A stretch of 64,000 nt of DNA from a virus: the IMG/VR virus record IMGVR_UViG_3300034072_000758, positions 427,030 through 491,029 of that record. One strand, given 5' to 3'. The notes under the pieces are model-generated. The model was given only the letters and a program-made list of their open reading frames with translations. It did not search any database and was not told the DNA's origin. A program made the translations under genes and the position numbers. Of the stretch, positions 5,117 to 53,296 are shown in pieces (position 1 is the first letter of the stretch; every line of letters starts with the position of its first letter).

Positions 5117-6016
5117 ATGGTACATCAACCCATGCGTGGTCCGCAAATCGGCTCCGTTTCCGACTACGACGACTATGACGATTATGGCTATTCGGAAATG
5201 GATAGCTATGGCATCGTTCGTCGGCATCGCAGCCAAAAAGAAAATATCAACAATTCTAAATGGGTTGATCCTATTCACGGTGGTCGCCGAACGAAACAGT
5301 CCGATCCCTATTACTTCTCCGAATATTTCCTTTTCGGTCGTCACGGCGACATCAAGCAAAAGGGCGTCACTGGCGATTATAGTGATCGTCTGAGTGAATG
5401 GGATCGTCTTCGTTATGACTTTCTGATGCGCAAGCATGTGCCGAATGGTTGGATGCGCGCAAGTCCTAGCCAACTCGAACCCTTCCTGACCGAATATTTC
5501 GGGGTCTTCAAGAACATCAAGGTGGTGGCTCTGGCCGAAGGCTGTAAAATGAGCGGCTATAACTACTTCATCGTCTGGTATACATACGAAGAAGTGGCCG
5601 AACGCTCGAAGCCGAAGATCAAGCGCAAGATTGAGGCTGAAAGGAACAAGCTCAAGGAAGCCGAAGATCAAGGCTACCGCAATTCCGATCTGGGGATGTA
5701 CCTTAAGTCGGCGGTGCGGGCGCTGGTCAGCGCGGCTCGTCCTATGTTCGGTGGCAAGCCCAAGGTTCACTGGCGCATTGACGCTCGTATCAAGCGTCTG
5801 GAAGCCATGACTATCGATGATCGCAAGCGCAAGAAGGGTGAGTTCAACAAACTCGCTAAGCGCATCCTCAAGCTGCTGAACGACACCAAGGCGGACCTGA
5901 CCGCTCAAAAGTCGTACTACAGTTCCGATCTGGACAAGGCGATTGAAACCGTCGAAACCAAGATCAAGGACTACAATACGCCGGGGTATAACCCATACGC
6001 GCGGGGCGCAGAATAA
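5117..6016 (+). CDS. hypothetical protein (299 aa, N-terminal DYDDYDDYGY acidic tract, basic coiled-coil C-terminal half)
   Basis: Long ORF with RBS AGGAG 8 nt upstream. The antisense ORF 5102..5908 is rejected. Confidence 0.6.
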   Translation: MVHQPMRGPQIGSVSDYDDYDDYGYSEMDSYGIVRRHRSQKENINNSKWVDPIHGGRRTKQSDPYYFSEYFLFGRHGDIKQKGVTGDYSDRLSEWDRLRYDFLMRKHVPNGWMRASPSQLEPFLTEYFGVFKNIKVVALAEGCKMSGYNYFIVWYTYEEVAERSKPKIKRKIEAERNKLKEAEDQGYRNSDLGMYLKSAVRALVSAARPMFGGKPKVHWRIDARIKRLEAMTIDDRKRKKGEFNKLAKRILKLLNDTKADLTAQKSYYSSDLDKAIETVETKIKDYNTPGYNPYARGAE

Positions 6017-7881: not shown

Positions 7882-9216
7882 TCACACGAACCAGTCGGTT
7901 CCTTCTTTTGTATCCAATAGGGTGACGCCGCGTTCGGCCAAAGCATTCCGAATGATGTCCGCCATGACCCAATCTTTACCGGCTCTTGCCAGATTGCGGT
8001 CGTAGATCAGACCTTCGATGATTTCACGCTCGTCCTTAGACACATTCTTGAACCAATCCTCGTATCGATGATTGAGGACACCAAGCAATTGCGCAGCCGC
8101 AACGAACTCGGACTTGGTTTCCGGCTTCATCAAACTGGATAATTCAGCCAGAGCCAAAGGCGTATTCAGATCATCATGAAGATGATCGAGGAATGATTGT
8201 GGCACCGGAACTTCGTGCGTGGTGAGCTTTGCCGTCTGGCGCAGGAAGGCATAGTAGCCATCCAGCCGGTTCTTCGTGGTTTGAAGAAGTTCTGGGGTCC
8301 AATTCAAGACGGTTCTATAATGCGCTGAGAGCAACGCCAAGCGCACGATTTCCCCATCCCATTCCTTTACGAGATCGTGGACCAACACGACATTCCCTAC
8401 CGACTTGGACATCTTGCCGTTATTGGTCAGGAACTCGTTATGCATCCAGTAGCGGGAATACTCGTGATTATGGCCGCAATGACCTTGAGCACATAACCCC
8501 TGAGAGATTTCATTCTCATGGTGCGGAAAGGCCAAGTCTATACCCCCGCCATGAATGTCGATAGGAAGACCCAGATTGGCTTCAATCATGGCCGAGCACT
8601 CAATGTGCCAACCGGGGCGTCCAGCACCCCACGGACTTTCCCAAGCCGGTTCACCGGGCTTCGACGGTTTCCATAGTACGAAGTCTTTTTGGTCGCGCTT
8701 ATACGACACCTCACCGATCCGGCTTTCGGCTTCGTCATCCGAACCATTGGAGAAAACACCATGATCCGGGTATGAATCCACGTCAAACAAAACGTGACCT
8801 TCCGACACATACGCATGGCCGTTCTTGATCAGACGCACAATCATGTCGATCATGGCCGGGATATGGTTGGTCGCCAGAGGTTCAATGGGAGGCCGTAGGA
8901 CGCCCACGGAGGCCATGTCTTGACGATATATGTCCGTGTAGCGTTCAGCAATAACCTTGTAGTCCACGCCCTCCTGAGAGGCTTTCTGGATGATTTTATC
9001 ATCGATGTCGGTGATGTTCCGAGCATAGATGACATGGTTATTTCCATACTTGTGGCGGAGAACACGAAACAGCAAATCGAATACGACCGCTGGGCGGGCA
9101 TTGCCGATATGTGCGTGATTATATACCGTAGGACCACAGACGTACATCGTAATCCGGTTAGGATTTCGAGGAACGAAAGTTTCTTTGGATCGAGTTTTGC
9201 TGTTGAATATCTTCAT
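7882..9216 (-). CDS. cysS: cysteinyl-tRNA synthetase (class I)
   Basis: HIGH motif (NHAHIGNARP), KMSKS motif (GKMSKSVGN), and a length typical of bacterial CysRS. Start trimmed to MKIFNSK with an AGGA RBS. The upstream in-frame extension to 9255 cannot be excluded. Confidence 0.85.
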   Translation of the reverse strand: MKIFNSKTRSKETFVPRNPNRITMYVCGPTVYNHAHIGNARPAVVFDLLFRVLRHKYGNNHVIYARNITDIDDKIIQKASQEGVDYKVIAERYTDIYRQDMASVGVLRPPIEPLATNHIPAMIDMIVRLIKNGHAYVSEGHVLFDVDSYPDHGVFSNGSDDEAESRIGEVSYKRDQKDFVLWKPSKPGEPAWESPWGAGRPGWHIECSAMIEANLGLPIDIHGGGIDLAFPHHENEISQGLCAQGHCGHNHEYSRYWMHNEFLTNNGKMSKSVGNVVLVHDLVKEWDGEIVRLALLSAHYRTVLNWTPELLQTTKNRLDGYYAFLRQTAKLTTHEVPVPQSFLDHLHDDLNTPLALAELSSLMKPETKSEFVAAAQLLGVLNHRYEDWFKNVSKDEREIIEGLIYDRNLARAGKDWVMADIIRNALAERGVTLLDTKEGTDWFV

Positions 9217-9261
9217 AGATAAATTCCTAACATAACCAATGACTGTTGGCAACACTATGGC

Positions 9262-10363: not shown

Positions 10364-11130
10364 AGCGAATCAACCCCATAACCAATAGTGCGCAGGATAA
10401 GAGAGATTTTAAGATCAGAACGTTCTCTGATCTTAATCACTATCTCGACACGTTTTTGGGCGGGGAGATTGCGCGTTGTGCGAAGGCTACGGTCTTCTTC
10501 ATGATTAATCGCATGTTGGATCAACCTGCCACCAAACCATTTAAACCCTTCACAATGGGTGATATTTTACGAGTGACCGGGGAAGACATCGATGTCGTGG
10601 TCCCTTCGACAAGCTGGCTTCAAAATCTCGACATTCTTGTGTTTGATCGGTCGATTGGTGACAATGATCCAATCACCCTGAAATATAGCACTCTTTTTAA
10701 AGACTTATATCGAAATAACGATCTGGGCGCTGGGCCGAAACCAGTACCAACCCCACCTATTATCCCCCGGTTGTTGGCGGCAATTGATGGCACGGTTGAC
10801 CACGAGCACAATGTCAGAGAAAAAGAAGATCGGGTATTTACTAAGACAATCCATCGTTTTCTTAATACCAACAGACTTTTTCTTCAATACTCTCTGACCA
10901 AATGTGCCGGTAAAGAAGATAGTCATATATCCAATGATCGCAAACCAATGGTTGTTATTGAATTTATTCATAGCTATGTTGGAATTATAGGACACACTTG
11001 GTTTACGGGCGCGGGCAAAGTATTAGCTCCCGAAACCAATGTTTATTACAAGGTTCGTCCCAAAAAAGGGTCTTCGCTCGAAGAGGCCGAAGAAGAACTT
11101 ATGTTGCTGATGATGGAGGAAAGAATATGA
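10360..11130 (+). CDS. hypothetical protein (256 aa)
   Basis: Long ORF. The antisense ORFs 10620..10871 and 10705..10995 are rejected. Confidence 0.55.
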   Translation: MKRINPITNSAQDKRDFKIRTFSDLNHYLDTFLGGEIARCAKATVFFMINRMLDQPATKPFKPFTMGDILRVTGEDIDVVVPSTSWLQNLDILVFDRSIGDNDPITLKYSTLFKDLYRNNDLGAGPKPVPTPPIIPRLLAAIDGTVDHEHNVREKEDRVFTKTIHRFLNTNRLFLQYSLTKCAGKEDSHISNDRKPMVVIEFIHSYVGIIGHTWFTGAGKVLAPETNVYYKVRPKKGSSLEEAEEELMLLMMEERI

Positions 11131-29033: not shown

Positions 29034-30791
29034 ATGTCCACTATGATCAAAGTTGCCTCAGTGCAATTCAATCCCGTTGTCGGCGACGTATTCGGCAATG
29101 CGGAGCGTATGCTTCAACTATACATTGAAGCGGCAAAGACCGCCGATCTGGTAGTCTTCCCCGAATGCTCCATCAGTGGGTATCCCATCGAAGACCTCGC
29201 GTTGAAGGCGGATTTCATCGACAGATGTATCGAAGCGCGAAAATCATTCATTGATGCCGTGTATCTTTCCAAGGAAAAGGCCGGTGTCATTTTCGGATGC
29301 CCCAACCTAAACACCAATGGTAAAACCACAAACTCCGCATTCGCGGTCGATCCGGTTCACCAAGACTATTCGATCTTTGATAAACAACGCCTCCCGAATT
29401 ATGGCGTGTTCGATGAAGTCCGTACTTTTGCCCCAGCAACCAAGCCTCAACCAACATGGCAGTTCCGCGATCTCAAGATCGGCATTCTGATCTGCGAAGA
29501 TGCGTGGCATTCCGGTTCGTTGAGCGGATGTATTGGTGAGCATTTCCCCAACCTGATGATCAGCATCAATGGTTCGCCGTTCGAAATCGGCAAGAATGTC
29601 ATCCGCAAGAATGTAATCGTAGATCGTATCCACGAACTGTTCGAAGTCGGTGATGCGTTCGGCGTCCCCTTCGTCTATACCAACATGGTTGGTGGTCAAG
29701 ACGAGATCGTATTTGATGGTAATTCGTTTGTCATCGACAAGAATGGCTACCGGGCTGTGCCTACCTTCGAAGAAGGTGTTCACTATTTCGATGTCTCGCT
29801 GGACTCGTTCCAACCGGGCGTTTACGATGTCGAGCCTTCCAGCATTGCCGATGTCTACAAATGTCTTGTCACCGGCACGAGAGATTTCTTCGGAAAGCAA
29901 GGTTTCGTGTCCGGCGTTCTCGGCTATTCAGGTGGTGTAGATTCGGGTCTGGTGGCCGCTATCCTTGTGGATGCGCAAGGACCGAAAAATGCCAATCTCG
30001 TGTCTCTTCCGTCGAAGTTCTCGGACCAAGCCTCGAAAGACGATGCCTTGGAAGGCGCTATTCGTTTGGGCGCTAACTATCGGTCGATCAGCATTGAACC
30101 GATTGTCCAAGCCCTACGCGATGCCTACAAGCCGTCTGAATACAATCCAAACAGCATGTCCATGATGAATGGCGCTCGTAAAAATACTGGCACGATCTTC
30201 ACCACGGACCCGGAGTTGAGCAACTATTCGGGTGAACTGACCGGCGTGGCGGACGAAAACATCCAAGCTCGTGCTCGTGGTAATATCCTGATGGCTATCT
30301 CTAACCAAGAAGGCCACATGGTTCTGTCCACCGGTAATAAGTCGGAAGTGAGCCTCGGTTTCTGTACGATTTATGGTGACATGTCGGGTGGTTACAACCC
30401 GATCAAGGATTGCCCGAAGACGCTGGTATGGGCGCTATGTTTGTGGCGAAATCAAGCTGATCCGGCTGAATACGGCTTCCTTGGTCCCAAGGGTGAAGTT
30501 GTTCCGCAAGAGATCATCGACAAAAAGCCGGACGCTGGCTTGGCTGAAAATTCCAAAGGCGATCCGTTCGACTACCGCAACATCACCGATCCAATCCTCA
30601 ATATTTTGGTGGACAAGGCCGGTTCGGTTCAAGACGTGATCGATGCTGGTTTTGATCCTGCGGAAGCACAGCGCCACTACAAGCTTCTTCTGCGCTCGGA
30701 ATACAAGCGCCGCCAAGCATGTCCCGGCATCAAGATCACTTCCAAATTACACGGGCGGGATCGACGTATCCCAATCGTCTATCGAGAATAA
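29034..30791 (+). CDS. nadE: glutamine-dependent NAD+ synthetase (N-terminal CN-hydrolase/nitrilase domain + C-terminal NAD synthetase domain)
   Basis: Nitrilase catalytic residues (FPE..K..ILICEDAWH). ATP-pyrophosphatase P-loop LGYSGGVDSGL. 585 aa. Confidence 0.85.
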   Translation: MSTMIKVASVQFNPVVGDVFGNAERMLQLYIEAAKTADLVVFPECSISGYPIEDLALKADFIDRCIEARKSFIDAVYLSKEKAGVIFGCPNLNTNGKTTNSAFAVDPVHQDYSIFDKQRLPNYGVFDEVRTFAPATKPQPTWQFRDLKIGILICEDAWHSGSLSGCIGEHFPNLMISINGSPFEIGKNVIRKNVIVDRIHELFEVGDAFGVPFVYTNMVGGQDEIVFDGNSFVIDKNGYRAVPTFEEGVHYFDVSLDSFQPGVYDVEPSSIADVYKCLVTGTRDFFGKQGFVSGVLGYSGGVDSGLVAAILVDAQGPKNANLVSLPSKFSDQASKDDALEGAIRLGANYRSISIEPIVQALRDAYKPSEYNPNSMSMMNGARKNTGTIFTTDPELSNYSGELTGVADENIQARARGNILMAISNQEGHMVLSTGNKSEVSLGFCTIYGDMSGGYNPIKDCPKTLVWALCLWRNQADPAEYGFLGPKGEVVPQEIIDKKPDAGLAENSKGDPFDYRNITDPILNILVDKAGSVQDVIDAGFDPAEAQRHYKLLLRSEYKRRQACPGIKITSKLHGRDRRIPIVYRE

Positions 30792-37709: not shown

Positions 37710-38240
37710 ATGGGTACTCGTCATTTGGTGGTTGTTCGCTTGAACAATGAAGTAAAAGTCGCTCAGTATGGTCAATTCGACGGTTATATGAGCGGGGCTG
37801 GTAGAACAATACAACGTATTTTGTCGTTTGCTGATTTGAATTTGCTAAAAGAGTTAGTAGCAAAATGTTGGTGGATCACAGATGATGAACACAACAAGAT
37901 GATGGCTGATCTTGGTGTCAAAAGTAATGACGGTTGGATTAGCTTGGATGACAGTAAAAAAATTGAAAAAGCTTATCCGCATCTTCATCGCAATTGTAGC
38001 GCCGAAGTCATCACTGAAATTCTCAACAGCGAAAACGGATTACCGCTTCAAAATTCATACGATTTTGGAGAAGATGGACTTTTTTGCGAATACACCTATA
38101 CGGTCGATCTCGACAATGATACATTGACCGCACAAAGCGGGGGTTTGGACGGCAAAGTCCTTTTCCAAGGACCAATCAACACGCTCCACACAATCCCACC
38201 ATTTGAAGACCCCAAAGACGAAGAAGAAGACGAAGAATGA
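37710..38240 (+). CDS. hypothetical protein with acidic C-terminus ([10 protein letters not shown])
   Basis: 176-aa ORF with an ATGA overlap with aspS. Confidence 0.5.
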
Positions 38241-40018
38241 CCAAGACAAACATGCGAACGCAAACCTGTGGTGAATTGACCGTGGCCTATACTGGCGACA
38301 CGGTGAGCCTGTGTGGCTGGATTCACCGCAAGCGAGATCATGGCGGCTTGCTGTTCATCGACTTACGTGACAATTACGGACTGACCCAGATCGTAATGCA
38401 AAAGACCGCTGCCTGTTTCTCGGTGGTGGAGCACCTTCGCCAAGAAAGCGTAATTCGCGTAATCGGTAAGGTCGTAACGAGAACGGAAAATACACAAAAC
38501 CCGAACCTCGCAACCGGGCAGATCGAAGTCATCGCTTCGGAAATTACAGTTCTGTCGGAAGCCTCGGAACTTCCAGTGCCAGTGTTCGGTGATGTTCAGT
38601 ATCCAGAAGACCAACGTTTGAAGCATCGCTATCTCGATCTTCGCCGTGACGAACTCCACTCAAACATCCTGCTGCGCTCCAAGATCATTAGCTACCTGCG
38701 TAGGTTCATGGAGGGCGAAGGCTTTACTGAGTTTCAGACGCCTATTCTGACCGCATCTTCCCCAGAAGGCGCGCGCGACTTCCTCATTCCATCACGCCTT
38801 CATCCCGGCAAATTTTATGCCCTGCCTCAAGCACCACAACAATTCAAGCAACTTTTGATGGTGTCTGGCTTTGACCGCTATTTCCAGATCGCACCTTGCT
38901 TCCGCGACGAAGCCGCCCGTGCTGACCGGTCGCCGGGTGAGTTCTATCAACTCGATATTGAAATGTCTTTCGTCAATCAGGAAGACGTTTTCTCTCAGGC
39001 TGAACGTATCCTTCATTCGACCTTTACTGAGTTCTCGAACGGGAAGACCGTAAGTTCGTACCCATTCCAGCGAATCACCTACAAGGACTCGATGGAAAAA
39101 TACGGCAACGATAAGCCCGATCTTCGTAACCCAATCGTCATGAGCGATGCTTCGCTTTATTTCGTGAACGGCGGCTTCGGTCTGTTTGAGAAAATGGCCA
39201 GCGACGGCAAAAGCTCGATCTGGGCTATTCCGGTCAAGGGCAATGGAAACATCAATCGCAAATTCTGCGACAAGATGAACTCTTGGGCCATCGAAGAAGG
39301 CCAAAAAGGTATGGGATATATCTATTGGAACGAAGAAGGCGCACAAGGCCCAATCGCCAAGAATCTCCATGCCGATAAGCTGGGACAATTGGAAGCCGCC
39401 TATGAATTGGGTAACGGTGATGCCATATTCTTCGTGGCCGGGATCAAAAAGGATTTCCTCAAGTTCTGCGGATTCGCCCGCACCAAGATCGCCGAAGAAC
39501 TCGGTCTGATCAAGGATGATCATTTCCATTTCTGCTGGGTGGTGGATTTCCCAATGTTCGAACTATCGAACGAAGGCAAAATCGATTTCGCCCACAATCC
39601 GTTCTCTATGCCACAAGGCGAAATGGAAGCTCTGGAAACCAAGAACCCGCTGGATATTCTGGCCTATCAGTACGACATCGTGTGTAACGGCATCGAACTG
39701 TCCTCCGGGGCTATTCGTAACCACCGACCCGACATCATGCTCAAGGCTTTTGAAATCGCTGGTTACAAGGCCGAGGAAGTGGAAGAACGCTTCGGCGGTA
39801 TGTTGAACGCATTCCGCTATGGCGCGCCTCCCCACGGTGGTCTGGCTCCCGGTGTTGACCGCATGGTCATGATGCTGGCTAATAAATCCTCCATCCGAGA
39901 CATCATCGCTTTCCCGCTGAATCAGCAAGGACAAGATTTGATGATGAACGCACCATCGGAAGTCACGGATAAACAACTCAAAGAGTTGAACATCCGAACA
40001 TACAAGCCATTGAGCTAA
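38237..40018 (+). CDS. aspS: aspartyl-tRNA synthetase (class II, bacterial-type)
   Basis: N-terminal OB anticodon-binding fold. Class II motif 2 (FRDE...R...F.Q.D.E) and motif 3 ([14 protein letters not shown]). 593 aa. Confidence 0.85.
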
Positions 40019-40449: not shown

Positions 40450-41676
40450 TTACAGCCACACTTTCCCATATGCTGATTGAAGAATAGACGGGATGAACAC
40501 TTTACCACCTTCGTCCTGATAGTTTTCCAGAACAGCCAACAAAGTTCTACCAACCGCCAGTCCAGACCCATTTAAGGTGTGGACTGGTTCTTTTTTGCCT
40601 TGAGCATTGGTGAAGCGAGTCTTCATGCGATTGGCTTGGAAATCGCCACAATTGGATACCGAGCTAATCTCACGATAAGTTTTCTGTGATGGCACCCAAA
40701 CTTCGATGTCGTAAGTCTTTTGTGCTCCGAAGCCCATGTCACCCGCGCATAATAACATGATGCGATATTTTATACCCAATGAAGTGAGGATGTTTTCAGC
40801 ACAAGATAACATGAACTCGTGCTCTTGTGCCGACTTCTCAGGCGTAGTGATCGACACCATTTCAACTTTGTTAAATTGATGCTGGCGTAAGATGCCATGC
40901 GTGTCCTTACCAGCGCTTCCGGCTTCGGATCGGAAACATGGGGTCAGCGCAGTTAGACGAAGGGGTAATTCACCCTCAGCCAAAATCTTATCAGCGACAT
41001 AATTTGTCAAAGTCACTTCGGCGGTCGGGATCAGAAAATGTTCATCAGTGTTCACCGAGTACAGGTCATCGATGAATTTAGGAAGCTGACCAGTTCCATA
41101 CAAGGCCGTGTCTTTCACCAGCAACGGAGTGGAGCATTCCTCGAATCCATTTTTAACCTGACATTCAAGCATATACTGCCCGATAACTCGTTCGAGACGT
41201 GCCACGGGGCCGCGCATGAATGAGAAGCGTGTGCCAGACATCGCTACCCCCGCTGATATATCGAGGCCGTATTTGCTCCCGATCTCAACATGGTCTTTCG
41301 GGTCTTTTATGGAACGGAGCGGAATATCATTGACACGAACCAATTGATTGTCGTGCTCGTCTTTTCCAACCGGAACGTCATTGGCTGGGACATTTGGGAT
41401 GTCGAACAAATAGTCTTCAAGTTCCCCGGCCAGATAATCGACCAAGCCTTCGGCAGTAGTTATTTCGGCCTTCACCGCCACCCCGGTTTCATGGTCTTTA
41501 TTCCGCGCGGCATCCTTGCGCTTGGCGTACAAAGCCTCAAGATCAGTCAACGATTTACGATGATCTGTATCCTTTTTGAGAATGTCCGAAACTATCCGAG
41601 ACCCGTCAAGCCCTCTCTTATTCAACCCGCTGGCAACGGCTTCTGGATTCTCGCGGATGGTCTTTATATTGATCAT
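40450..41676 (-). CDS. serS: seryl-tRNA synthetase (class II)
   Basis: N-terminal coiled-coil tRNA-binding arm. Motif 2 (FRSEAGSAGKDTHGILRQHQFNKVE). Motif 3 (GSGLAVGRTLLAVLENYQ). 408 aa. Confidence 0.85.
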   Translation of the reverse strand: MINIKTIRENPEAVASGLNKRGLDGSRIVSDILKKDTDHRKSLTDLEALYAKRKDAARNKDHETGVAVKAEITTAEGLVDYLAGELEDYLFDIPNVPANDVPVGKDEHDNQLVRVNDIPLRSIKDPKDHVEIGSKYGLDISAGVAMSGTRFSFMRGPVARLERVIGQYMLECQVKNGFEECSTPLLVKDTALYGTGQLPKFIDDLYSVNTDEHFLIPTAEVTLTNYVADKILAEGELPLRLTALTPCFRSEAGSAGKDTHGILRQHQFNKVEMVSITTPEKSAQEHEFMLSCAENILTSLGIKYRIMLLCAGDMGFGAQKTYDIEVWVPSQKTYREISSVSNCGDFQANRMKTRFTNAQGKKEPVHTLNGSGLAVGRTLLAVLENYQDEGGKVFIPSILQSAYGKVWL

Positions 41677-46321: not shown

Positions 46322-46350
46322 AAAAGCCCGCTTCAAGCGGGCTTTTTTTA
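46321..46350. terminator. bidirectional rho-independent terminator (A-run, GCCCGCTT-caa-GCGGGC, T-run)
   Basis: Seen directly between convergent genes. Confidence 0.7.
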
Positions 46351-47538
46351 ATAATTTGCTAATATGTTTCTATAATATTTTAAATACAAGTTCGAGTTTC
46401 CCGAAACGTTATTCATAGTTACAATAATATCCAGATTGTCTATGTAAAACCTCACAAATTCGGTAGCATCAATTGGTAATGTGACATCACTTAACATGCT
46501 TATGGAACGAAGTGCCGAGTCATAATAATAAATCTCGTGTGGCGCACTAGGAGAACTTGAATTTTTCATATTTGTTATGATCAAATATTTGTTAGTTCGA
46601 TTTGATATTTTATGTATATGGCTGTTCCCATTACTTATTATGCTTCTGGTATAATTGTTTATATTGCCCTGTAACGAACTCGTCTCATCGGTTACAACGG
46701 ACGTAGAGGGGTTATAAGAAAAATAGGAAAATTGAGGATGCGTTACGCTGCTTGAACCATGATGTAGCAACAATTCATTGTTGGCCGGGGATAACATCGC
46801 GCGAGACGCAAGGTTACCAGATACAAAGGTATATGGGCTTGTGTATGTTTGTTCATACGTGATGCCGGTAGACGTATTGAACTTGAAGAAATATAAATAG
46901 CTTCCATTCATATTCCACATCACAAAAGTGTCGTCATTAATCCATTCTACTTCACACACCGCACCAAATGAGCTATAACCCGGAATACCGGTAGGCACAG
47001 TAATAGTAAAATTAGAAGCCGGGGTCAAAACCGTTACATATACCGTTCCACTAAGAACACTCGCCGTAGCCGCCCAATCATTTGTTTTATGCCAACCATT
47101 TGCGGTAGTCGTACTCGCAGCCGAGGTAGCATGGTAAATAGAGCGTGATGTCGATGTAGAGGCAAATGGAAATGTTGTTAACACATCAGAACCACTTACA
47201 GTTGTCTGTGGATAACCACCAAAAACCGAGGGTTTATGAAGCGCTCTCGTAAAAGTAAAAGGACCACTACTATAAAAACCTGATGAATTTGCGGTATCTT
47301 TCACATACAAATCGGTCCCGGTATTCAACATAATAGCATATCTTATACCAGACACATAATAGCCGCTCGAAGCAGTGGTTGTATCTTTTCCGTATGAATA
47401 CAGGCCATTTACCATTGGTGCTGTACTTGGGTGTACTTTACCATTAAAGCTTACAAAATACGGGGTGTGATCAAACCTCGTACTTGAGGTCTGAGCGGGC
47501 GATGTACTTTTTCCTTCAACCAAATAATGATACAGCAT
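46348..47538 (-). CDS. fiber-like structural protein (Ser/Thr/Tyr/Asn-rich, 396 aa)
   Basis: Composition. ATGA-coupled to the upstream collagen-repeat gene. Confidence 0.5.
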   Translation of the reverse strand: MLYHYLVEGKSTSPAQTSSTRFDHTPYFVSFNGKVHPSTAPMVNGLYSYGKDTTTASSGYYVSGIRYAIMLNTGTDLYVKDTANSSGFYSSGPFTFTRALHKPSVFGGYPQTTVSGSDVLTTFPFASTSTSRSIYHATSAASTTTANGWHKTNDWAATASVLSGTVYVTVLTPASNFTITVPTGIPGYSSFGAVCEVEWINDDTFVMWNMNGSYLYFFKFNTSTGITYEQTYTSPYTFVSGNLASRAMLSPANNELLLHHGSSSVTHPQFSYFSYNPSTSVVTDETSSLQGNINNYTRSIISNGNSHIHKISNRTNKYLIITNMKNSSSPSAPHEIYYYDSALRSISMLSDVTLPIDATEFVRFYIDNLDIIVTMNNVSGNSNLYLKYYRNILANY

Positions 47539-48818
47539 TATGAGAAGTTCTTCCCGATCTGGGTTAGAAGATACGTTAAACCGCCGTCATATGTAAATAC
47601 AGTGTAAACATCTACCGCACCATTCGACGTGGATTGTGTATACGTAACATTCTGGGGGGTTCTGGCCGATGCTGGCCATGTTACCGAAAATGCTCCGCCC
47701 CCCTGCCGCACCGCAACAATCGCAGTATATGTTCTGGATGTCGAAACCGCATTCGTGAAGGCAAAACTTGTAGCCCCGGTTAAGGTAATATTATAAAAAT
47801 AGTTAGCACCTAGATCGAGCGTAACAGTTCCAGACGCACTAGCAACCACCGCAACATTTTCATAAGTTGGCCCCATCGGACCTTGAATACCTTGAATGCC
47901 CTGAACACCTTGAATACCTTGAACACCTTGAATACCCTGAGCACCAGTATTACCTATAGGGCCTTGTATACCTTGTATACCTTGCGGACCTTGTGGTCCT
48001 TGCTCACCTCTAACATACCCAGCGTTCCCAATCGATCCATTGGAATATAGAATATTAAGCCAGCCGGTAATCGCGTTGGCCGAAACAATACCATTACCAT
48101 ATGGACCTGCTGGTCCGGTCGCGCCTTGGTTACCCTGTGGCCCCTGTGGGCCGATCACCGAACCAGCATCAATCGTCGCTCCCGTTGAGAGAGTCAGAAT
48201 AAGGCGTCCTGAGCCATTGACCACTGCTGCTGTAACACTGGTCCCACTTGGACCCACCACGGCACCGGCATTGATCACGGTTCCAGACGTAAGCGTCAGA
48301 TAAAGTTGACCGTTCGTAACTGTAGCAGACTGTACACCAACACCATTGGTCCCAGAAGCCCCATCTAAGCCCTTTACGTAGCCAGCATTGATCGTGAGGC
48401 CGTTGGACATATTAATGAAGAGATCGCCGCTCTGAGCTACGTATGCGCCTTGTACGCCTACACCGTTTTCACCCACAACATCACCCACGTCGATGACCGT
48501 GTTATCAGTCAAAGTGAAAATCAGATTTTGGTTCAGAATTTGCGCGTTGGAAACGCCGACGCCTTGCGGACCAGCCTCGCCAGTAGGAACGATCCCGGCA
48601 TCAATGACTGAGTTATCGGTCATGAGCATCAGAAGATGATTCTCACCGTTTACGTACTCAACGTATACGTTGGCAACACCCACCCCACGCGGGCCTTCTG
48701 GCCCCATAACAACAGGGATTTTATCGACCACGGCATTAGGTATTATCGTGTCGTTTGTATTGTTGAACATAACTGGTGGAGTACCACCGGGAAGACGGGC
48801 ATTGATAATATCTGGCAT
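47538..48818 (-). CDS. collagen-like triple-helix-repeat fiber protein
   Basis: Runs of G-X-Y triplets ([19 protein letters not shown]; [47 protein letters not shown]) encoded by 9-bp tandem DNA repeats at about 47880-47960. Confidence 0.7.
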
Positions 48819-48843
48819 ACAGATATTTATTCAACAACATGAC

Positions 48844-48871
48844 TTGACAAAATATCAGGCTATGCTATCTT
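48844..48871 (+). promoter_or_regulatory. sigma70-like promoter TTGACA-N16-TATCTT driving a non-coding unit
   Basis: Seen directly. Confidence 0.5.
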
Positions 48872-48877
48872 ATACTT

Positions 48878-49346
48878 GTCCCTCCGCTATTGGGTCGTGT
48901 GAACATTCTAGGTAAGTAACACGTTCTCATACAGGCTCGCGGTTAAGTCTATGGGTGATCTGAGTGGCCTAAGATGTATGTGGTTCGATTCCACTATGGG
49001 ATACCAATTCGCTCAAATGAGCAAACGAATTGTTGTTTAAAGGGTGTATGGAGGCACGTTCTGTCCGAGTGGGGACAGAAAGGCGGGGGTTCGAATCCCC
49101 GTTGTCCGAATCAGGTGGTGTTTTCGAGGGAGACCTTGGAAATGTGGGTTCGAGTCCCACAGAGACAGAACAACAGACCAACGGCGAGAGTTGCGTATCT
49201 ATAAGTTCAGGCCCGAAAGGGATAGAGTGAAGCTGAGGATGCCGCGAAGGAAGTAAGCGCGGATTCGATGACGCTGAAACGAATATTACACCCTGACGCT
49301 CTCAATGATTAGGCCCTCGGACATACCATCCGAGGGCCTTTTTTAT
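48878..49346 (+). ncRNA. promoter-to-terminator non-coding transcription unit containing three tRNA T-arm/acceptor-like hairpins (GTGG-TTCGATT-CCAC...GGGATACCA; CGGGGG-TTCGAAT-CCCCG; GTGGG-TTCGAGT-CCCAC) that do not form canonical cloverleaves
   Basis: No ORF with a start/RBS. T-loop consensus three times on the plus strand. One hairpin can form an acceptor/T minihelix (GGACAG...CGGGGGTTCGAATCCCCG-TTGTCC). Strong terminator at 49311-49346. Confidence 0.4.
49311..49346 (+). terminator. rho-independent terminator (AGGCCCTCGG-loop-CCGAGGGCCT + TTTTTT)
   Basis: Seen directly. Confidence 0.7.
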
Positions 49347-49675
49347 ATGTATAGCAACACGTCCATTAAAAGATTATCTATACATTCCACCGAGGGCTTG
49401 TCCGTGTGCGGGAAATTAGTGTACATCAAACGATTATCATTGAACGTAAATTCATACTTATATTCTTGAATACCATTATTTCTAAGCTTATACGTGATGT
49501 CATCAATAAAAATCTCCCAAATAAAAACCGAATCAATTTTGTCTATTTCAATACGTTTATACTTATGTCCATAGCCCTCACGACATTGCGTCCATTTACC
49601 CAAGCTCTCTATTTGCTTAAAAGCATTTTCAAGAGACCTGAGTAAATGTCGTTGTTCCTGCGGTGTGTAAATCAT
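49343..49675 (-). CDS. hypothetical protein (110 aa) translationally coupled to the K+ channel gene
   Basis: ORF 49343..49894 trimmed to the Met at the ATGA overlap. Confidence 0.45.
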   Translation of the reverse strand: MIYTPQEQRHLLRSLENAFKQIESLGKWTQCREGYGHKYKRIEIDKIDSVFIWEIFIDDITYKLRNNGIQEYKYEFTFNDNRLMYTNFPHTDKPSVECIDNLLMDVLLYI

Positions 49676-50016
49676 TTCTTTTGAGACCGAATGTATTTCA
49701 GAATTTCTTCTTGTTCTTCGTGCGTGAACTCGTTGCGATTCTCGACCATCGTACTGATGATGCGACCGATCAACAAAGGCATAATGAAAAGAAGAATGAC
49801 GTGCATCAAGCCAGTCGCAATAAGCCGCCCAGCCAAAGTTGTGGGATACATGTCGCCGTAGCCGACCGTAGAGGCAGTCACGACGCACCACCAAAGACTA
49901 TCCCAGAAAGTCTTTCCTTCGGCCCACGAGTAGCCCAGAGCCGCCAGAAACACGATCAATACATACAGAGCAATAAGCTCACGGATCGTGTTTGTCGCCT
50001 TGATCAAATACTTCAT
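49672..50016 (-). CDS. viral-type potassium channel (2-TM/P-loop, Kcv-like, 114 aa)
   Basis: K+ selectivity filter TVGYGD (WWCVVTASTVGYGDMYPTT) between two hydrophobic helices. ORF 49672..50073 trimmed to the Met with an AAGGAGA RBS. Confidence 0.7.
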   Translation of the reverse strand: MKYLIKATNTIRELIALYVLIVFLAALGYSWAEGKTFWDSLWWCVVTASTVGYGDMYPTTLAGRLIATGLMHVILLFIMPLLIGRIISTMVENRNEFTHEEQEEILKYIRSQKK

Positions 50017-50075
50017 ACTATCTCCTTTTCTAATAGAGAAGCGCAGCATACTACTTTTTAATGGAAGCATCAAGA

Positions 50076-50357
50076 TCAGCCATGACGATATAATGCGTCA
50101 GACAACCAACCATCCCAATCATCGAATGGAGGAATGTTGTTGAGATCGACCACGAAGTAACGCATCAGGGCATTATCGACTGTGGCTTGCGCTCTGGCCT
50201 TCCAAACAGCTTTCGCTTCCTCGGAAGATGGATAGATACCTACCAAGTCGATTTTAGAAACATCTTTGAATTGGAGAGAATCGACGGAGACCAACTCTCC
50301 CCCAATCACCAAATACAACCACTGTCTTGTGTGAAAGCTGTCGGTTTCGTTGGTCAT
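50076..50357 (-). CDS. hypothetical protein
   Basis: ORF 50076..50414 trimmed to the first Met outside tRNA-Trp. Confidence 0.45.
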   Translation of the reverse strand: MTNETDSFHTRQWLYLVIGGELVSVDSLQFKDVSKIDLVGIYPSSEEAKAVWKARAQATVDNALMRYFVVDLNNIPPFDDWDGWLSDALYRHG

Positions 50358-50383
50358 ATTCCAGTCCTTGTGATCAAAGTATT

Positions 50384-50460
50384 TTGGCAGGGGTGGAGAG
50401 ATTCGAACTCCCATCGCGCAGTTTTGGAGACTGCCGCTCTAACCGTTGGAGCTACACCCC
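50384..50460 (-). tRNA. tRNA-Trp (anticodon CCA), CCA encoded
   Basis: Minus strand: acceptor AGGGGTG/CACCCCT, D-arm GCTC-CAACGGTTA-GAGC, anticodon stem GCAGT/ACTGC with loop CTCCAAA, T-arm GGGAG-TTCGAAT-CTCTC. Confidence 0.75.
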
Positions 50461-50473
50461 TATAGGCGATCAA

Positions 50474-50752
50474 TCACTTGACCGCAAAGGAAGAAATGAG
50501 CTTACAACTCGTTTTTACAAACCCTACATAACGAGGGTCCGAGAAACGGTCGAAGTCATTCAAATAATCGAAGTCCGCCTTGTCGATTTCATACACATGA
50601 TATTCGACGGCTGGTGAATGCTGTTCTACAACCGTAAAACTACGGTCGCTTCTCAAGCCACGTTCTTTATCTGCGATCTTCACAGCTTCAATCGGCCTTA
50701 AGTTATTCGTCAAGGCGACGATATGATTTTGATTCAAAACAGCGGTACGCAT
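50474..50752 (-). CDS. hypothetical protein
   Basis: 92-aa ORF between tRNAs. Confidence 0.45.
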   Translation of the reverse strand: MRTAVLNQNHIVALTNNLRPIEAVKIADKERGLRSDRSFTVVEQHSPAVEYHVYEIDKADFDYLNDFDRFSDPRYVGFVKTSCKLISSFAVK

Positions 50753-50812
50753 ACTATTACTCCTTACCCGACATTAATAATTTATTTACATTATCAAAGT
50801 CAATTTTATTTT

Positions 50813-50903
50813 TGGAGGACGTGGTGGGACTCGAACCCACGGTGGTCTATGTTACGACAACAGGTTAAGAGCCTGTCCCTCTCGCCGCTGAGGTGACACG
50901 TCC
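50813..50903 (-). tRNA. atypical type-II (long variable arm) tRNA with lysine anticodon CUU; chimeric derivative of the canonical tRNA-Lys(CUU) at 51517-51593
   Basis: 5' GGACGTG-TCA-CCTC-AGCGGCGA-GAGG-G-ACAGG-CTCTTAA-CCTGT-[TGTCGTAACATAGACCACC]-GTGGG-TTCGAGT-CCCAC-CACGTCC-T-CCA. Acceptor stem, T-arm and anticodon loop are identical to the canonical Lys(CUU). It adds a Ser/Tyr-like D-arm and a 19-nt variable arm. Confidence 0.55.
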
Positions 50904-50997
50904 GTATCAAAAATGTAGGGAGATCGGGTTCACCACAATCATGCTGGTACACAAGGTCGTCACATGATTAGTAACCCACTAGGGCATGGCTCCAGCT

Positions 50998-51074
50998 TGG
51001 TGAACACGGTGGGGGTCGAACCCACGACCTACTGATTAAAAGTCAGTTGCTCTACCTACTGAGCTACGTGTTCG
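50998..51074 (-). tRNA. tRNA-Lys (anticodon UUU), canonical, CCA encoded
   Basis: GAACACG-TA-GCTC-AGTAGGTA-GAGC-A-ACTGA-CTTTTAA-TCAGT-AGGTC-GTGGG-TTCGACC-CCCAC-CGTGTTC-A-CCA. Confidence 0.75.
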
Positions 51075-51154
51075 TGCGCCCTGTCGGACTCGAACCGACA
51101 CTCGTTAGAAGCAGATTTTAAGTCTGCCGGGTCTACCAATTTCCCCAAGGGCGC
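51075..51154 (-). tRNA. tRNA-Leu (anticodon UAA), type II
   Basis: Acceptor GCGCCCT/AGGGCGC, Leu-type D-arm, anticodon stem GCAGA/TCTGC with loop CTTAAAA, 13-nt variable arm, T-arm GTCGG-TTCGAGT-CCGAC. Confidence 0.7.
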
Positions 51155-51204
51155 TTAGGTACTTTTCTTGTAAACATCAAAGATGATTTTGGCAACATCT
51201 TTGT

Positions 51205-51280
51205 TGGCGAGGATAGAAGGATTCGAACCTCCGACACATGCGTTCGAAGCGCATTGCTCTGTCCACTGAGCTATATCCCC
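51205..51280 (-). tRNA. tRNA-Arg (anticodon UCG), CCA encoded
   Basis: GGGGATA-TA-GCTC-AGTGGACA-GAGC-A-ATGCG-CTTCGAA-CGCAT-GTGTC-GGAGG-TTCGAAT-CCTTC-TATCCTC-G-CCA. Confidence 0.7.
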
Positions 51281-51281
51281 G

Positions 51282-51366
51282 TGCGCCGAGAGGGATTCGA
51301 ACCCTCATACCATTACGGTGTCCGTTTTTGAAACGGGTGCGTCTACCAAAGTTCCGCCACCAGCGC
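51282..51366 (-). tRNA. tRNA-Leu (anticodon CAA), type II
   Basis: Acceptor GCGCTGG/TCGGCGC (two G-U pairs), D-arm GCG-GAACTTTGGTAGA-CGC, anticodon loop TTCAAAA, T-arm GAGGG-TTCGAAT-CCCTC. Confidence 0.65.
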
Positions 51367-51417
51367 ATAGAAAACCTTTAATATAGATCGTTATCCACAT
51401 CCATATTAAAGGTTATG

Positions 51418-51501
51418 AGGATGTAGAGGGACTCGAACCCCCGATGGTCTTTTGACAACGGATTAAAAGCCCGTCCCTCTCGCCGCTGAGGTGATACATC
51501 C
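51418..51501 (-). tRNA. atypical type-II (long variable arm) tRNA with lysine anticodon UUU
   Basis: 5' GGATGTA-TCA-CCTC-AGCGGCGA-GAGG-G-ACGGG-CTTTTAA-TCCGT-[TGTCAAAAGACCATC]-GGGGG-TTCGAGT-CCCTC-TACATCC-T. The 22-nt D-region TCACCTCAGCGGCGAGAGGGAC is identical to the other atypical tRNA. Confidence 0.55.
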
Positions 51502-51516
51502 ATAGTAGTATTTGTT

Positions 51517-51593
51517 TGGAGGACGTGGTGGGACTCGAACCCACAACATTCGGTTTAAGAGACCGACGCTCTAACCATTGTAGCTACACGTCC
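51517..51593 (-). tRNA. tRNA-Lys (anticodon CUU), canonical, CCA encoded
   Basis: GGACGTG-TA-GCTA-CAATGGTTA-GAGC-G-TCGGT-CTCTTAA-ACCGA-ATGTT-GTGGG-TTCGAGT-CCCAC-CACGTCC-T-CCA. Confidence 0.75.
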
Positions 51594-51610
51594 GTATCAA
51601 ACAAATACTG

Positions 51611-51683
51611 CGCGGATCAAGGGACTCGAACCCATAACCCTCTGTTTAGAAGACAGATGCTCGTCCAATTGAGCTTCATCCGC
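51611..51683 (-). tRNA. tRNA-Arg (anticodon UCU)
   Basis: Acceptor GCGGATG/GATCCGC (one mismatch), anticodon stem TCTGT/ACAGA with loop CTTCTAA, T-loop TTCGAGT. Stems are slightly imperfect. Confidence 0.55.
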
Positions 51684-51692
51684 ATAGTAGTG

Positions 51693-51778
51693 TGTGCCGA
51701 GGGGGACTCGAACCCCCACGCCCATTACAGGCCCCGGTTTCTGAAACCGGGAAGTCTACCAAATTTCATCATCAGCAC
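51693..51778 (-). tRNA. tRNA-Leu (anticodon CAG), type II
   Basis: Acceptor GTGCTGA/TCGGCAC, anticodon stem CCGGT/ACCGG with loop TTCAGAA, long variable arm, T-arm GGGGG-TTCGAGT-CCCCC. Confidence 0.65.
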
Positions 51779-51803
51779 GTATGCTCTTTCGAGCAAAGTC
51801 TTG

Positions 51804-51883
51804 TACGGGTGAGAGGACTCGAACCTCCACGATTGCTCGCTAGAACCTAAACCTAGTGCGTCTACCAGTTTCGCCACACCCGC
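51804..51883 (-). tRNA. tRNA-Leu (anticodon UAG), type II
   Basis: Acceptor GCGGGTG/CACCCGT, D-arm GCG-AAACTGGTAGA-CGC, anticodon stem CTAGG/TCTAG with loop TTTAGGT, T-arm GGAGG-TTCGAGT-CCTCT. Confidence 0.65.
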
Positions 51884-51884
51884 G

Positions 51885-51957
51885 CACTGCCAGTAGGACT
51901 CGAACCTACAACCTTCTGATTCGTAATCAGATGCTCATCCAGTTGAGCTATGGCAGC
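51885..51957 (-). tRNA. tRNA-Arg (anticodon ACG), copy 1
   Basis: GCTGCCA-TA-GCTC-AACTGGAT-GAGC-A-TCTGA-TTACGAA-TCAGA-AGGTT-GTAGG-TTCGAGT-CCTAC-TGGCAGT-G. Confidence 0.7.
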
Positions 51958-52081
51958 ATAAAGCAACAAGACGGTGGGGTTCGAACCCACAACCTTTCGG
52001 CTCCGACTTTGACCGCAACGGCTTTTCGCAAACCATTACGTGCGTGTGTATACCCATTCCACCACGCCAAGTTACTTCAAG
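51958..52081 (-). other. unassigned 124-nt spacer inside the tRNA array containing a T-arm-like palindrome GTGGGGTTCGAACCCAC but no foldable acceptor/anticodon arms
   Basis: Could not be folded into a cloverleaf on either strand. All other spacers in the array are 0-15 nt. Confidence 0.3.
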
Positions 52082-52166
52082 TGTCCATGAAAGGATTCGA
52101 ACCTTCACGCCCATTACAGGCAACAGCCTCTCAAGCTGCCGTGGCTACCAATTACACCACACGGAC
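52082..52166 (-). tRNA. tRNA-Leu (anticodon GAG), type II
   Basis: Acceptor GTCCGTG/CATGGAC, D-arm GTG-TAATTGGTAGC-CAC, anticodon stem GCAGC/GCTGT with loop TTGAGAG, T-arm GAAGG-TTCGAAT-CCTTT. Confidence 0.65.
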
Positions 52167-52175
52167 ATACGCAAG

Positions 52176-52292
52176 TGCGTTCGGGAGGATTCGAACCTCC
52201 AACCTCTATACTCGTTTGATCGTCATCCGACCAGTATAGCGGTATCCAACCCTCTAATGGGCTGGCGTGGCTACCAATTTCACCACGAGCGC
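52176..52292 (-). tRNA. atypical 117-nt Leu-like type-II tRNA with a non-canonical anticodon region (CCAGCCC-ATTAGA-GGGTTGG) and an oversized variable region; possible pseudogene, suppressor-like or insert-containing tRNA
   Basis: Acceptor GCGCTCG/CGAACGC (one C-A mismatch), Leu-type D-arm TG-GTG-AAATTGGTAGC-CAC, T-arm GGAGG-TTCGAAT-CCTCC. The middle section has a 7-bp stem, a 6-nt loop and a second 7-bp hairpin CTATACT...AGTATAG. Confidence 0.4.
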
Positions 52293-52302
52293 ATATTACG
52301 AG

Positions 52303-52377
52303 CGGGACTGGCAGGATTCGAACCTGCGACCTTCGGTTTCGTAGACCGGCGCTCTTATTCCGCTGAGCTACAGTCCC
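52303..52377 (-). tRNA. tRNA-Arg (anticodon ACG), copy 2 (different body)
   Basis: GGGACTG-TA-GCTC-AGCGGAATAA-GAGC-G-CCGGT-CTACGAA-ACCGA-AGGTC-GCAGG-TTCGAAT-CCTGC-CAGTCCC-G. Confidence 0.6.
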
Positions 52378-52720: not shown

Positions 52721-53296
52721 TTACTTTACGATCTTGAAACCGTGCTTCTTGTAGTATGGAACGTTCTCGAAATCGATGACCGACACCATAAACTTACCAT
52801 AGCCGTTGCTGACCATGACTTGTTCGACCGTGGCCACGACCTGATCCACGACCGACTTGACCGCCTTCGCCGCTTTGATCTTCGGCTTGATGGTTTCGAC
52901 AGCGGGTTCAACCGACGCTTCATCTTCAATAACGCGCGGCGCGATTTCGGCTGCGACCGTTTCGATGCGAGTGTCGATGACATTGATGGAATCGCCGAAC
53001 TTGGAGACTTCACGATCCAGACGCTTGAGTTCGAGGTTTTCGACCGCGTTGTTATGACCGTTACCATCCTTATGAACGACTTCATCATTCTTCGTCGCGC
53101 CGAGGAAGCAGATGGCTATCAGACGATGGAGGCCGACCTTGGAATGGAGGGCGACGTTCTTGAGACTGATACGGAGCTTATCGCCATCCTTCTGATAGGA
53201 TAGTTCGGTGCCGTCCTTCTTGAAGACGCGACCATCGGAAGTGGCAAGATATTGTTCGTCCGCGAAATAGAAACGGACGCGCTTGACGCTCGACAT
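52721..53296 (-). mobile_element. freestanding HNH homing endonuclease gene adjacent to the tRNA array
   Basis: HNH motif (HKDGNGHNNAVENLE), N-terminal homing-endonuclease-associated domain. 191 aa. Confidence 0.7.

Follow-up and report, generated by a model that had tools for sequence, protein, structure and literature searches.

A predicted miniature potassium channel of the bacterial KcsA/Kv-pore type encoded beside a tRNA island by a tailed phage

The potassium channels of chloroviruses (Kcv) and of giant viruses are virus-encoded pore modules of ~80-120 amino acids (aa) with two transmembrane (TM) helices and a GYGD or GFGD filter sequence (Greiner et al. 2018; PMC6163359). Kcv acts from the internal membrane of the virion, a membrane which tailed phages do not have (PMC9405923). 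Channels of phages have nevertheless been catalogued: Greiner et al. (2018; PMC6163359) already listed those of Myrna, Phabba, ME3, ventosus, BillNye, PLE and vibriophages, discussed possible roles with reference to T4 and T5, which increase their host's conductance for K+, and argued that sporadic channels such as that of Myrna are non-essential, while Kukovetz et al. (2020) restated that the channels of phages constitute a group separate from those of algal viruses. No functional study of any phage K+ channel was found in the literature searched. In bacteria, a K+ channel forms part of a PspA-associated envelope-stress/polyamine operon that also encodes a GspS-like ATP-grasp protein, DUF350/YjfL and DUF1190 (Ravi et al. 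2024; PMC11237479). The gene considered here encodes a K+ channel subunit of 114 aa and is located on the minus strand of a 64,000-nucleotide stretch of viral DNA (IMG/VR record IMGVR_UViG_3300034072_000758, positions 427,030 to 491,029), which is referred to as the window and whose numbering is used below. Taken as a whole, the explanation that this gene encodes a channel of bacterial KcsA/Kv-pore type, that it belongs to a distinct subfamily, that it resides in a tRNA-island setting and that it serves an auxiliary role is regarded as likely.

The channel open reading frame (ORF) starts with an ATG at 50016-50014 and ends with a TGA at 49674-49672, and the length of 114 aa given in a first-pass annotation of the window is accurate, with only the strand having been omitted. 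The same annotation pointed to a strong ribosome-binding site (RBS) and to a stop/start overlap with a downstream gene, and both can be read directly: AAGGAGA lies 4 nt ahead of the ATG, and the tetranucleotide ATGA comprises the channel stop and the start codon of a 110-codon ORF on the same strand. When the window is translated in all six frames, the pattern T[VI]G[YF]GD occurs nowhere but in the filter TVGYGD, the mean in 100 shuffles being 0.0. A TIGYG at 10375-10389 (minus strand) was considered as a second channel candidate and rejected as a chance match in a non-coding frame. Judged from its sequence, the channel gene is genuine, intact, conserved and, by its RBS, well translated.

Profile searches, sequence comparison and structure prediction converge on the same assignment. 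Pfam Ion_trans_2 matches aa 19-90 with 55.2 bits (cutoff 22.5, E 6.8e-15), and Ion_trans is the only other Pfam family that passes its cutoff; in NCBIfam there are only sub-threshold matches to larger Kv-type equivalogs. Among solved structures, phmmer against the PDB ranks the KvLm pore module first by sequence (E 9e-12), ahead of KcsA (E 3e-11), and the pore stretch LWWxVxTAxTVGYGDxYP aligns residue for residue with solved channels. Kyte-Doolittle hydropathy has its maxima at ~aa 12-30 and 62-88, one on each side of the filter. An AlphaFold2 model, calculated for the monomer only from an alignment of 46 sequences, has a mean predicted local distance difference test score (pLDDT) of 91.3 and contains helices at aa 2-7, 11-33, 37-48, 61-90 and 99-113, so that the filter follows the pore helix and is placed between the outer helix TM1 and the inner helix TM2, which is followed by a cytoplasmic tail of 24 aa. 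In Foldseek the top match of this model is KcsA (TM-score 0.61/0.67, root-mean-square deviation 2.1 Å over 88 columns, probability 1.00, 31-34% identity), followed by the MthK pore, KvLm and Kv1.x pores. Residues that are invariant across 46 homologues include E33, W42, W43, V46, T47, T50, G52, Y53, G54, D55, P58, G63 and P80. Since V46 occupies the position of KcsA Glu71, the filter scaffold is Kv-like, and structures of KcsA E71V are among the structural matches. Pfam, AlphaFold2 and the KcsA fold thus agree on the two-helix P-loop K+ channel with a TVGYGD filter and short tail that had been proposed, and its identity as such a subunit is as firm as computation allows. By analogy with the solved relatives, four subunits would form a K+-selective pore in the cytoplasmic membrane of the host; both termini are predicted to be cytoplasmic, with which the short N-terminal segment is consistent under the positive-inside rule.

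The description of the protein as Kcv-like holds for its minimal viral pore architecture with two TM helices, but not for its sequence and fold, which are closest to the bacterial KcsA/Kv-pore type. The best match in a viral structure library is a channel of an uncultured member of the Caudovirales (E 1.5e-5, 32% identity), and the channels of giant viruses are only reached at E 0.026 or worse with 15-26% identity, which does not place the protein in the Kcv family. In addition Kcv has no conserved cytoplasmic tail, whereas the window protein carries a conserved tail motif, and its origin appears to be bacterial and not common with the channels of algal viruses. With KcsA of Streptomyces lividans and the KvLm pore module of Listeria (PDB 4H33) it shares the fold, an identical pair of tryptophans in the pore helix and an identical TVGYGD-x-YP at 31-34% overall identity. 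It differs in a shorter turret, in the Val that replaces KcsA Glu71, in an invariant Pro in TM2, in its neck motif and in a tail that is much shorter than the 40-residue C-terminal bundle of KcsA.

The conserved tail motif is located 6-8 residues past TM2, in a cytoplasmic neck where the window protein reads F97-T-H-E-E-Q-E-E-I105. In 46 sequences F97, E101 and Q102 are conserved in 100%, H99 in 96% and E103/E104 in ~90%, and position 100 is acidic in 93%. The motif is present in 36 of the 85 viral loci and in 16 of the 80 genomic loci examined; among phages, phiK7A1 (Pseudomonas), ME3 (Acinetobacter) and Muntaha (Streptomyces) have it as F-T-H-E-E-Q-E in their channels, and LAh_8 (Aeromonas) and Myrna (Mycobacterium) in a degenerate form, and it is also found in channels of Caulobacter, Reyranella and Nanopelagicaceae. 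Among the homologues compared, the Kv-type matches with six TM helices lack it, and no description of an F-x-H-E-E-Q-E-E-I neck motif was found in the literature searched. By this sequence criterion the window channel is a member of a distinct mini-channel subfamily that is common to bacteria (mainly Alphaproteobacteria and Actinobacteria) and phages. The motif and the heptad-like helix that follows it would together be an assembly and gating element, in which the neck would link the inner gate to a short four-helix bundle, with a ring of four Gln between rings of Glu on the pore axis. Such a ring would be a candidate sensor of pH, divalent cations or polyamines, and the modelled tail helix may serve as the bundle that holds the tetramer together.

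Channels of this kind are rare in tailed phages, as the first-pass annotation had stated, but they are not novel. The window protein matches PHROG 14690 along its full length (E 5.7e-38, with aa 1-111 aligned to positions 1-111 of the 122 in the profile); the label of this family, 'cAMP-dependent Kef-type K+ transporter', is a misnomer, as the 114-aa protein is too short and contains no cyclic-nucleotide or Kef/CPA2 domain. Homologues with 31-44% identity, nearly all of 105-126 aa, are found by tblastn in 42 of 50,697 GenBank phage records representing ~26 phages, and a pattern scan of IMG/VR brought up relatives on at least 199 viral contigs, some of them 205-465 kb long. The phage channels of PHROG 14690 (ME3 gp314, the Pseudomonas phages ventosus/phiK7A1, the Streptomyces phages BillNye/Muntaha, LAh_8 and Myrna gp260) have in common a length of 114-126 aa, the architecture of two TM helices and a P-loop, GYGD, the F-T-H-E-E-Q-E neck and a location in accessory regions, often by tRNA genes. 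The window protein differs from these channels of cultured phages in that it falls into another clade, has one of the shortest tails and is derived from an uncultured phage of probably ~517 kb. With it, an already catalogued family of phage and bacterial mini-channels now includes one from a phage of roughly half a megabase.

The nearest relatives are bacterial. The protein most similar to the window channel (P0002, 67% identity) is encoded in a chromosomal operon on a 146-kb contig of a bacterial metagenome-assembled genome (MAG), flanked on one side by GlnE, DUF350, a 268-aa protein, DUF1190 and GSP_synth and on the other by a HAMP histidine kinase, a response regulator, DegP and CcmH/F; the adjacent GSP_synth is 69-71% identical to Asticcacaulis proteins and the MAG is therefore assigned to the Caulobacteraceae. 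A scan of species-representative genomes recovered channels of Caulobacter (52-57%), a Rhodospirillaceae bacterium (52%) and Reyranella (49%), followed by Actinobacteria. Bacterial homologues overall are 42-67% identical, and those of Caulobacterales and related Alphaproteobacteria 49-67%. Close viral relatives are found on a 521,890-bp scaffold dense in ORFs without homologues (ORFans; P0008, 54%), on a phage-like 14-kb contig (P0007, 53%) and on two IMG/VR contigs (L095 and L096, 57%). In a neighbour-joining tree of ~110 columns without support values, the window protein groups with the Asticcacaulis-like sequence and the close viral contigs next to Caulobacter, whereas the channels of cultured phages form another clade and those of IMG/VR phages of 160-465 kb (L108-L114) a third. 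The channel gene has a GC content of 47.8% and a GC content at third codon positions (GC3) of 0.61 in a window of 46% GC, compared with a GC3 of 0.76-0.92 in the bacterial copies. This phage-like base composition implies long residence in low-GC phage genomes, and by this measure the channel is an old acquisition or exchange and not a recent capture from bacteria.

The operon of the 67% homologue (DUF350, 268-aa protein, DUF1190, GSP_synth and channel; L001 2807-6405) is of the same cluster type as the PspA/polyamine operon described by Ravi et al. (2024; PMC11237479). Parts of it also accompany channels in phages: DUF1190 and GSP_synth follow the channel gene of Aeromonas phage LAh_8 (L093 2992-5125), a phage which thus carries part of an envelope-stress operon, and GSP_synth precedes the channel gene in two IMG/VR loci (L098 and L101, 4868-6348). 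When the 64-kb window was searched by tblastn with the L001 and LAh_8 proteins, GSP_synth, DUF1190 and DUF350 were all absent, so that the channel gene of the window is not a member of such an operon. The phage would appear to have taken, or kept, the channel alone from this type of operon.

That the gene is encoded by a tailed phage follows from the content of the window, which includes virion structural proteins, collagen-like tail fibres, a head-tail adaptor, a UvsX-like recombinase, a gp32-like single-stranded DNA-binding protein, the large subunit of ribonucleotide reductase and 25 tRNAs predicted by ARAGORN with one more from Rfam (Table 1); the tailed-phage location assumed in the first-pass annotation is borne out. 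An identical copy of the locus is present on a 37.7-kb Logan contig that also carries a T4 gp13-like gene. A protein identical to the product of the 110-codon ORF is recorded on a 516,805-bp contig, which makes a phage of roughly half a megabase (~517 kb) the probable source. A megablast of positions 49000-51000 against GenBank phages gave no match, leaving the region without a close sequenced relative there. The three genes of aminoacyl-tRNA synthetase (aaRS) type, the NAD synthetase and the ~26 tRNAs represent a heavy investment in translation and cofactors that is typical of huge phages.

Table 1. Features of the channel locus and of its surroundings; positions refer to the window except in the row on other viral loci (CDS, coding sequence; CysRS, AspRS and SerRS, cysteinyl-, aspartyl- and seryl-tRNA synthetase)
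Feature	Position	Strand	Basis or remark
K+ channel subunit CDS, 114 aa	49672-50016	-	ORF and translation, Pfam, PHROG, AlphaFold2, KcsA match
Shine-Dalgarno sequence AAGGAGA	50027-50021	-	4-nt spacer to channel ATG; read directly from sequence
Outer helix TM1, aa 11-33, with invariant E33 at its end	49918-49986	-	AlphaFold2, hydropathy, conservation
Pore helix, aa 37-48, invariant W42-W43, V46 at KcsA E71 position	49873-49908	-	AlphaFold2, KcsA alignment, conservation
Selectivity filter TVGYGD, aa 50-55	49852-49869	-	Sequence; T50, G52, Y53, G54 and D55 invariant (46 homologues)
TM2 (inner helix), aa 61-90, invariant G63 and P80	49747-49836	-	AlphaFold2, hydropathy, conservation
Subfamily signature F97-T-H-E-E-Q-E-E104, cytoplasmic neck just past TM2	49705-49728	-	Column conservation
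C-terminal amphipathic helix, aa 99-113, heptad-like hydrophobics at 105/109/112	49678-49722	-	AlphaFold2, column statistics
110-aa ORF overlapping channel stop (ATGA), soluble ORFan, GC 34.8%	49343-49675	-	ORF scan, hydropathy, searches
11-bp GC-rich hairpin directly past stop of 110-aa ORF; T-run on plus-strand side only	49311-49339		Terminator scan, sequence
DUF4170 protein, 93 aa, 59 nt upstream of channel gene	50076-50357	-	Pfam PF13773 E 1.5e-21; Logan contig gene call agrees
tRNA-Trp, upstream of DUF4170 gene	50385-50461	-	
tRNA array, 14-15 genes	50385-52377	-	ARAGORN, Rfam
HNH_3 homing-endonuclease-like gene, flanking tRNA/channel island	52721-53296	-	
Viral loci with a tRNA close to the channel gene: L004, L092, L108-L110, L113, L114, L119, L120	around position 6000		
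Collagen-like tail fibres, directly downstream of the channel gene and 110-aa ORF	46348-48818	-	
Tail-fibre protein with long collagen-like G-x-Q/G-P-Q repeats	47538-48818	-	
Virion structural protein, 1773 aa	23413-28734	-	
CysRS	7882-9255	-	
AspRS	38237-40018	+	
SerRS-like protein	40450-41676	-	
NAD synthetase	29034-30791	+	

Upstream of the channel gene follow, in this order and all on the same strand, the DUF4170 gene, the tRNA-Trp gene, an ORF of 92 aa (orf92) and an array of tRNA-Lys/Leu/Arg genes. A longer call of the DUF4170 ORF (50076-50414) would overlap the tRNA, and translation probably begins at the internal ATG at 50357. Within the array, the Rfam tRNA model also scores 34.8 bits (gathering threshold 29) on 117 nt at 52176-52292 (minus strand) that are not called by ARAGORN, which may be an intron-containing tRNA or one with a long variable arm. 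A simple scan for sigma70-like promoters gave none in the interval from the tRNA array to the channel gene, and a strong hairpin follows the 110-aa ORF; the channel gene is therefore likely to be transcribed together with the tRNA island, and on these sequence signals it probably shares a transcription unit, or at least a plastic region, with the array.

The association with tRNA genes is also seen at other loci. A tRNA is present in the fetched flank of 18 of the 38 viral loci whose channel bears the neck motif, compared with 5 of the 49 other viral channel loci, counts which were made without a control matched for genome size and in which a plastic island and a link to translation are thus not separable. 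A tRNA is located 3-61 bp from the channel gene in at least four lineages of phages, represented by the 522-kb scaffold, by Muntaha, by the L108-L114 group and by L119/L120, and in the L108-L114 phages (160-465 kb) a CysRS gene, 50-56% identical to that of the window, lies ~0.7 kb upstream of the channel gene. An HNH gene directly follows the channel gene in the 522-kb scaffold (L004 6566-7096), and HNH genes that flank tRNA/channel regions fit a recombination-prone accessory region.

On the other side of the locus, the 524-nt gap between the 110-aa ORF and the tail-fibre gene (48819-49342) contains three degenerate tRNA-like elements on the plus strand (48925-49002, 49026-49109 and 49095-49167), which have canonical GGTTCGAWTCC T-arms and are called by ARAGORN at a lowered threshold only. 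The Rfam tRNA model does not find these elements, and Rfam on 48800-49350 returned nothing convincing. They are framed by a promoter-like TTGACA-16-TATCTT site (48844-48871) and a strong terminator (49311-49339), both on the plus strand, and this unit may represent a small antisense non-coding RNA or decayed tRNA genes.

As to function, the role that is tentatively favoured is that of an auxiliary gene for host physiology which would support K+ homeostasis and membrane potential. From bacterial energetics, opening of the channel would pull the membrane potential toward the K+ equilibrium potential (E_K) and allow electrophoretic movement of K+, and the raised K+ permeability would hold the potential near that value. 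K+ lost at infection could then be regained, which would keep K+-dependent translation and the proton-motive force going over the extended infection cycle of a huge phage with a large outlay on translation. A far more ambitious version, to which only a small probability is attached, would regard the neck-motif channels as a recurrent and functionally coherent auxiliary gene of large phages that is tied to translation islands of tRNA and aaRS genes and derived from PspA/polyamine membrane-stress operons, the H-E-E-Q-E ring being gated by cytoplasmic pH, Mg2+ or polyamines so that the channel holds the potential and restores K+ for translation. Several points weigh against these proposals. The physiological role is drawn from general bacterial K+ energetics and from the remark on T4 and T5 by Greiner et al. 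(2018; PMC6163359), and the adjacency of tRNAs may only reflect that tRNA-rich large phages gather accessory genes at such sites, to which the HNH genes also point. The tail of the window protein is among the shortest in the family, and as it spans only about two heptads a coiled-coil bundle is uncertain. The tree, as noted, is short and carries no support values, and for a host among the Caulobacterales, which is possible, the affinity of a single gene is a weak indication.

The virions of tailed phages contain no lipid membrane, and a virion-borne entry role in the style of Kcv is implausible for the channel of a tailed phage. Superinfection exclusion or the blocking of competitors, as a tailed-phage counterpart to the effect ascribed to Kcv, is unlikely. 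The channel would here alter the membrane potential or K+ gradient of the host early in infection and thereby block the energisation-dependent DNA entry of later phages. Depolarisation driven by Kcv is established in chloroviruses (PMC9405923; PMC6163359), and the gene is placed in an accessory island instead of a core module and occurs sporadically among phages, as is typical for exclusion genes. However, a K+-selective pore drives the potential to E_K, which is strongly negative at low external K+, and depolarisation is not expected in fresh water. A search with PADLOC moreover yielded no match to known defence or exclusion proteins for the channel, nor any defence-system match for the product of the 110-codon ORF, the DUF4170 protein or orf92.

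It is likewise rather improbable that the gene has no specific role for the phage and is carried along as a selectively near-neutral passenger, having been acquired from a host at an island of tRNA and homing-endonuclease genes that is prone to recombination. The plasticity of the island, with its tRNAs and the HNH gene next to them, and the HNH gene that directly follows the channel in the 522-kb scaffold would favour such an origin, as would the sporadic occurrence in phages, on account of which Greiner et al. (2018; PMC6163359) call channels such as that of Myrna non-essential. The gene is, however, intact and preceded by a strong RBS and has kept every invariant residue of the family, and its phage-like base composition implies that the long residence was under selection. 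Members of the subfamily are also spread over many phage lineages that are unrelated to one another, and at least six of the contigs concerned measure 200 kb or more.

A function in lysis timing, in which the channel would either buffer the potential against early triggering of the holin in the course of a long latent period or act itself as a late holin-like lesion, is decidedly unlikely. It is established that holins are triggered by loss of the proton-motive force, and the channel, a small membrane protein with two helices, has its gene ~0.9 kb upstream of late tail-fibre genes with which it shares the strand. Against this, the K+ filter of the protein is intact and invariant and the fold is that of KcsA and not of a holin: no holin family of PHROG or Pfam matches it, and holins in BFVD reach a probability of at most 0.11. 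No endolysin or spanin gene adjoins it among the ORFs scanned, its neighbours being the DUF4170 protein and the ORFan, and the same subfamily is resident on bacterial chromosomes.

The product of the 110-codon ORF had been put forward as a possible regulatory subunit, which finds no comparative support. It gives no significant match to Pfam or PHROG (marginal matches of E 0.06 or worse, far below the cutoffs) and none to NCBIfam or PADLOC. A word-indexed search of 5.8 billion clustered proteins returned only the protein itself, and an exhaustive phmmer search of 1.84 billion representatives added three short-repeat artefacts in long repetitive proteins. The single-sequence AlphaFold2 model is of low confidence (pLDDT 64) and has no fold match (best Foldseek E 0.33), and the gene has a GC3 of 0.39, a composition unlike that of its neighbours that fits a young, fast-evolving or differently derived gene. 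By tblastn it is found beside none of the 174 other channel loci, where the channel stop may overlap unrelated genes instead: a 66-aa ORF in ME3 and in Muntaha, DUF1190 in LAh_8 and phosphoribosyl pyrophosphate (PRPP) synthetase in Myrna. The 66-aa ORFs were compared and rejected as relatives of each other or of the window ORF. It is thus very improbable that channel and 110-aa protein form a two-component system of pore and cytoplasmic regulatory subunit, even though the latter is predicted to be soluble and the ATGA overlap implies coupled translation in roughly equal amounts; the stop/start coupling is a matter of genome compaction, the next gene in a compact operon, and not evidence for a subunit.

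With the auxiliary role in host physiology as the tentatively preferred reading, the gene leaves the picture of what phages encode unchanged; channels of phages have been listed since 2018. What this copy adds is the neck-motif subfamily, the affinity to Caulobacterales, the setting in a huge phage and the link both to envelope-stress/polyamine operons of bacteria and to the tRNA islands of phages. With only 114 residues and a Kv-like filter scaffold, with Val at the position of KcsA E71, the protein is also an attractive minimal K+ channel for biophysics.

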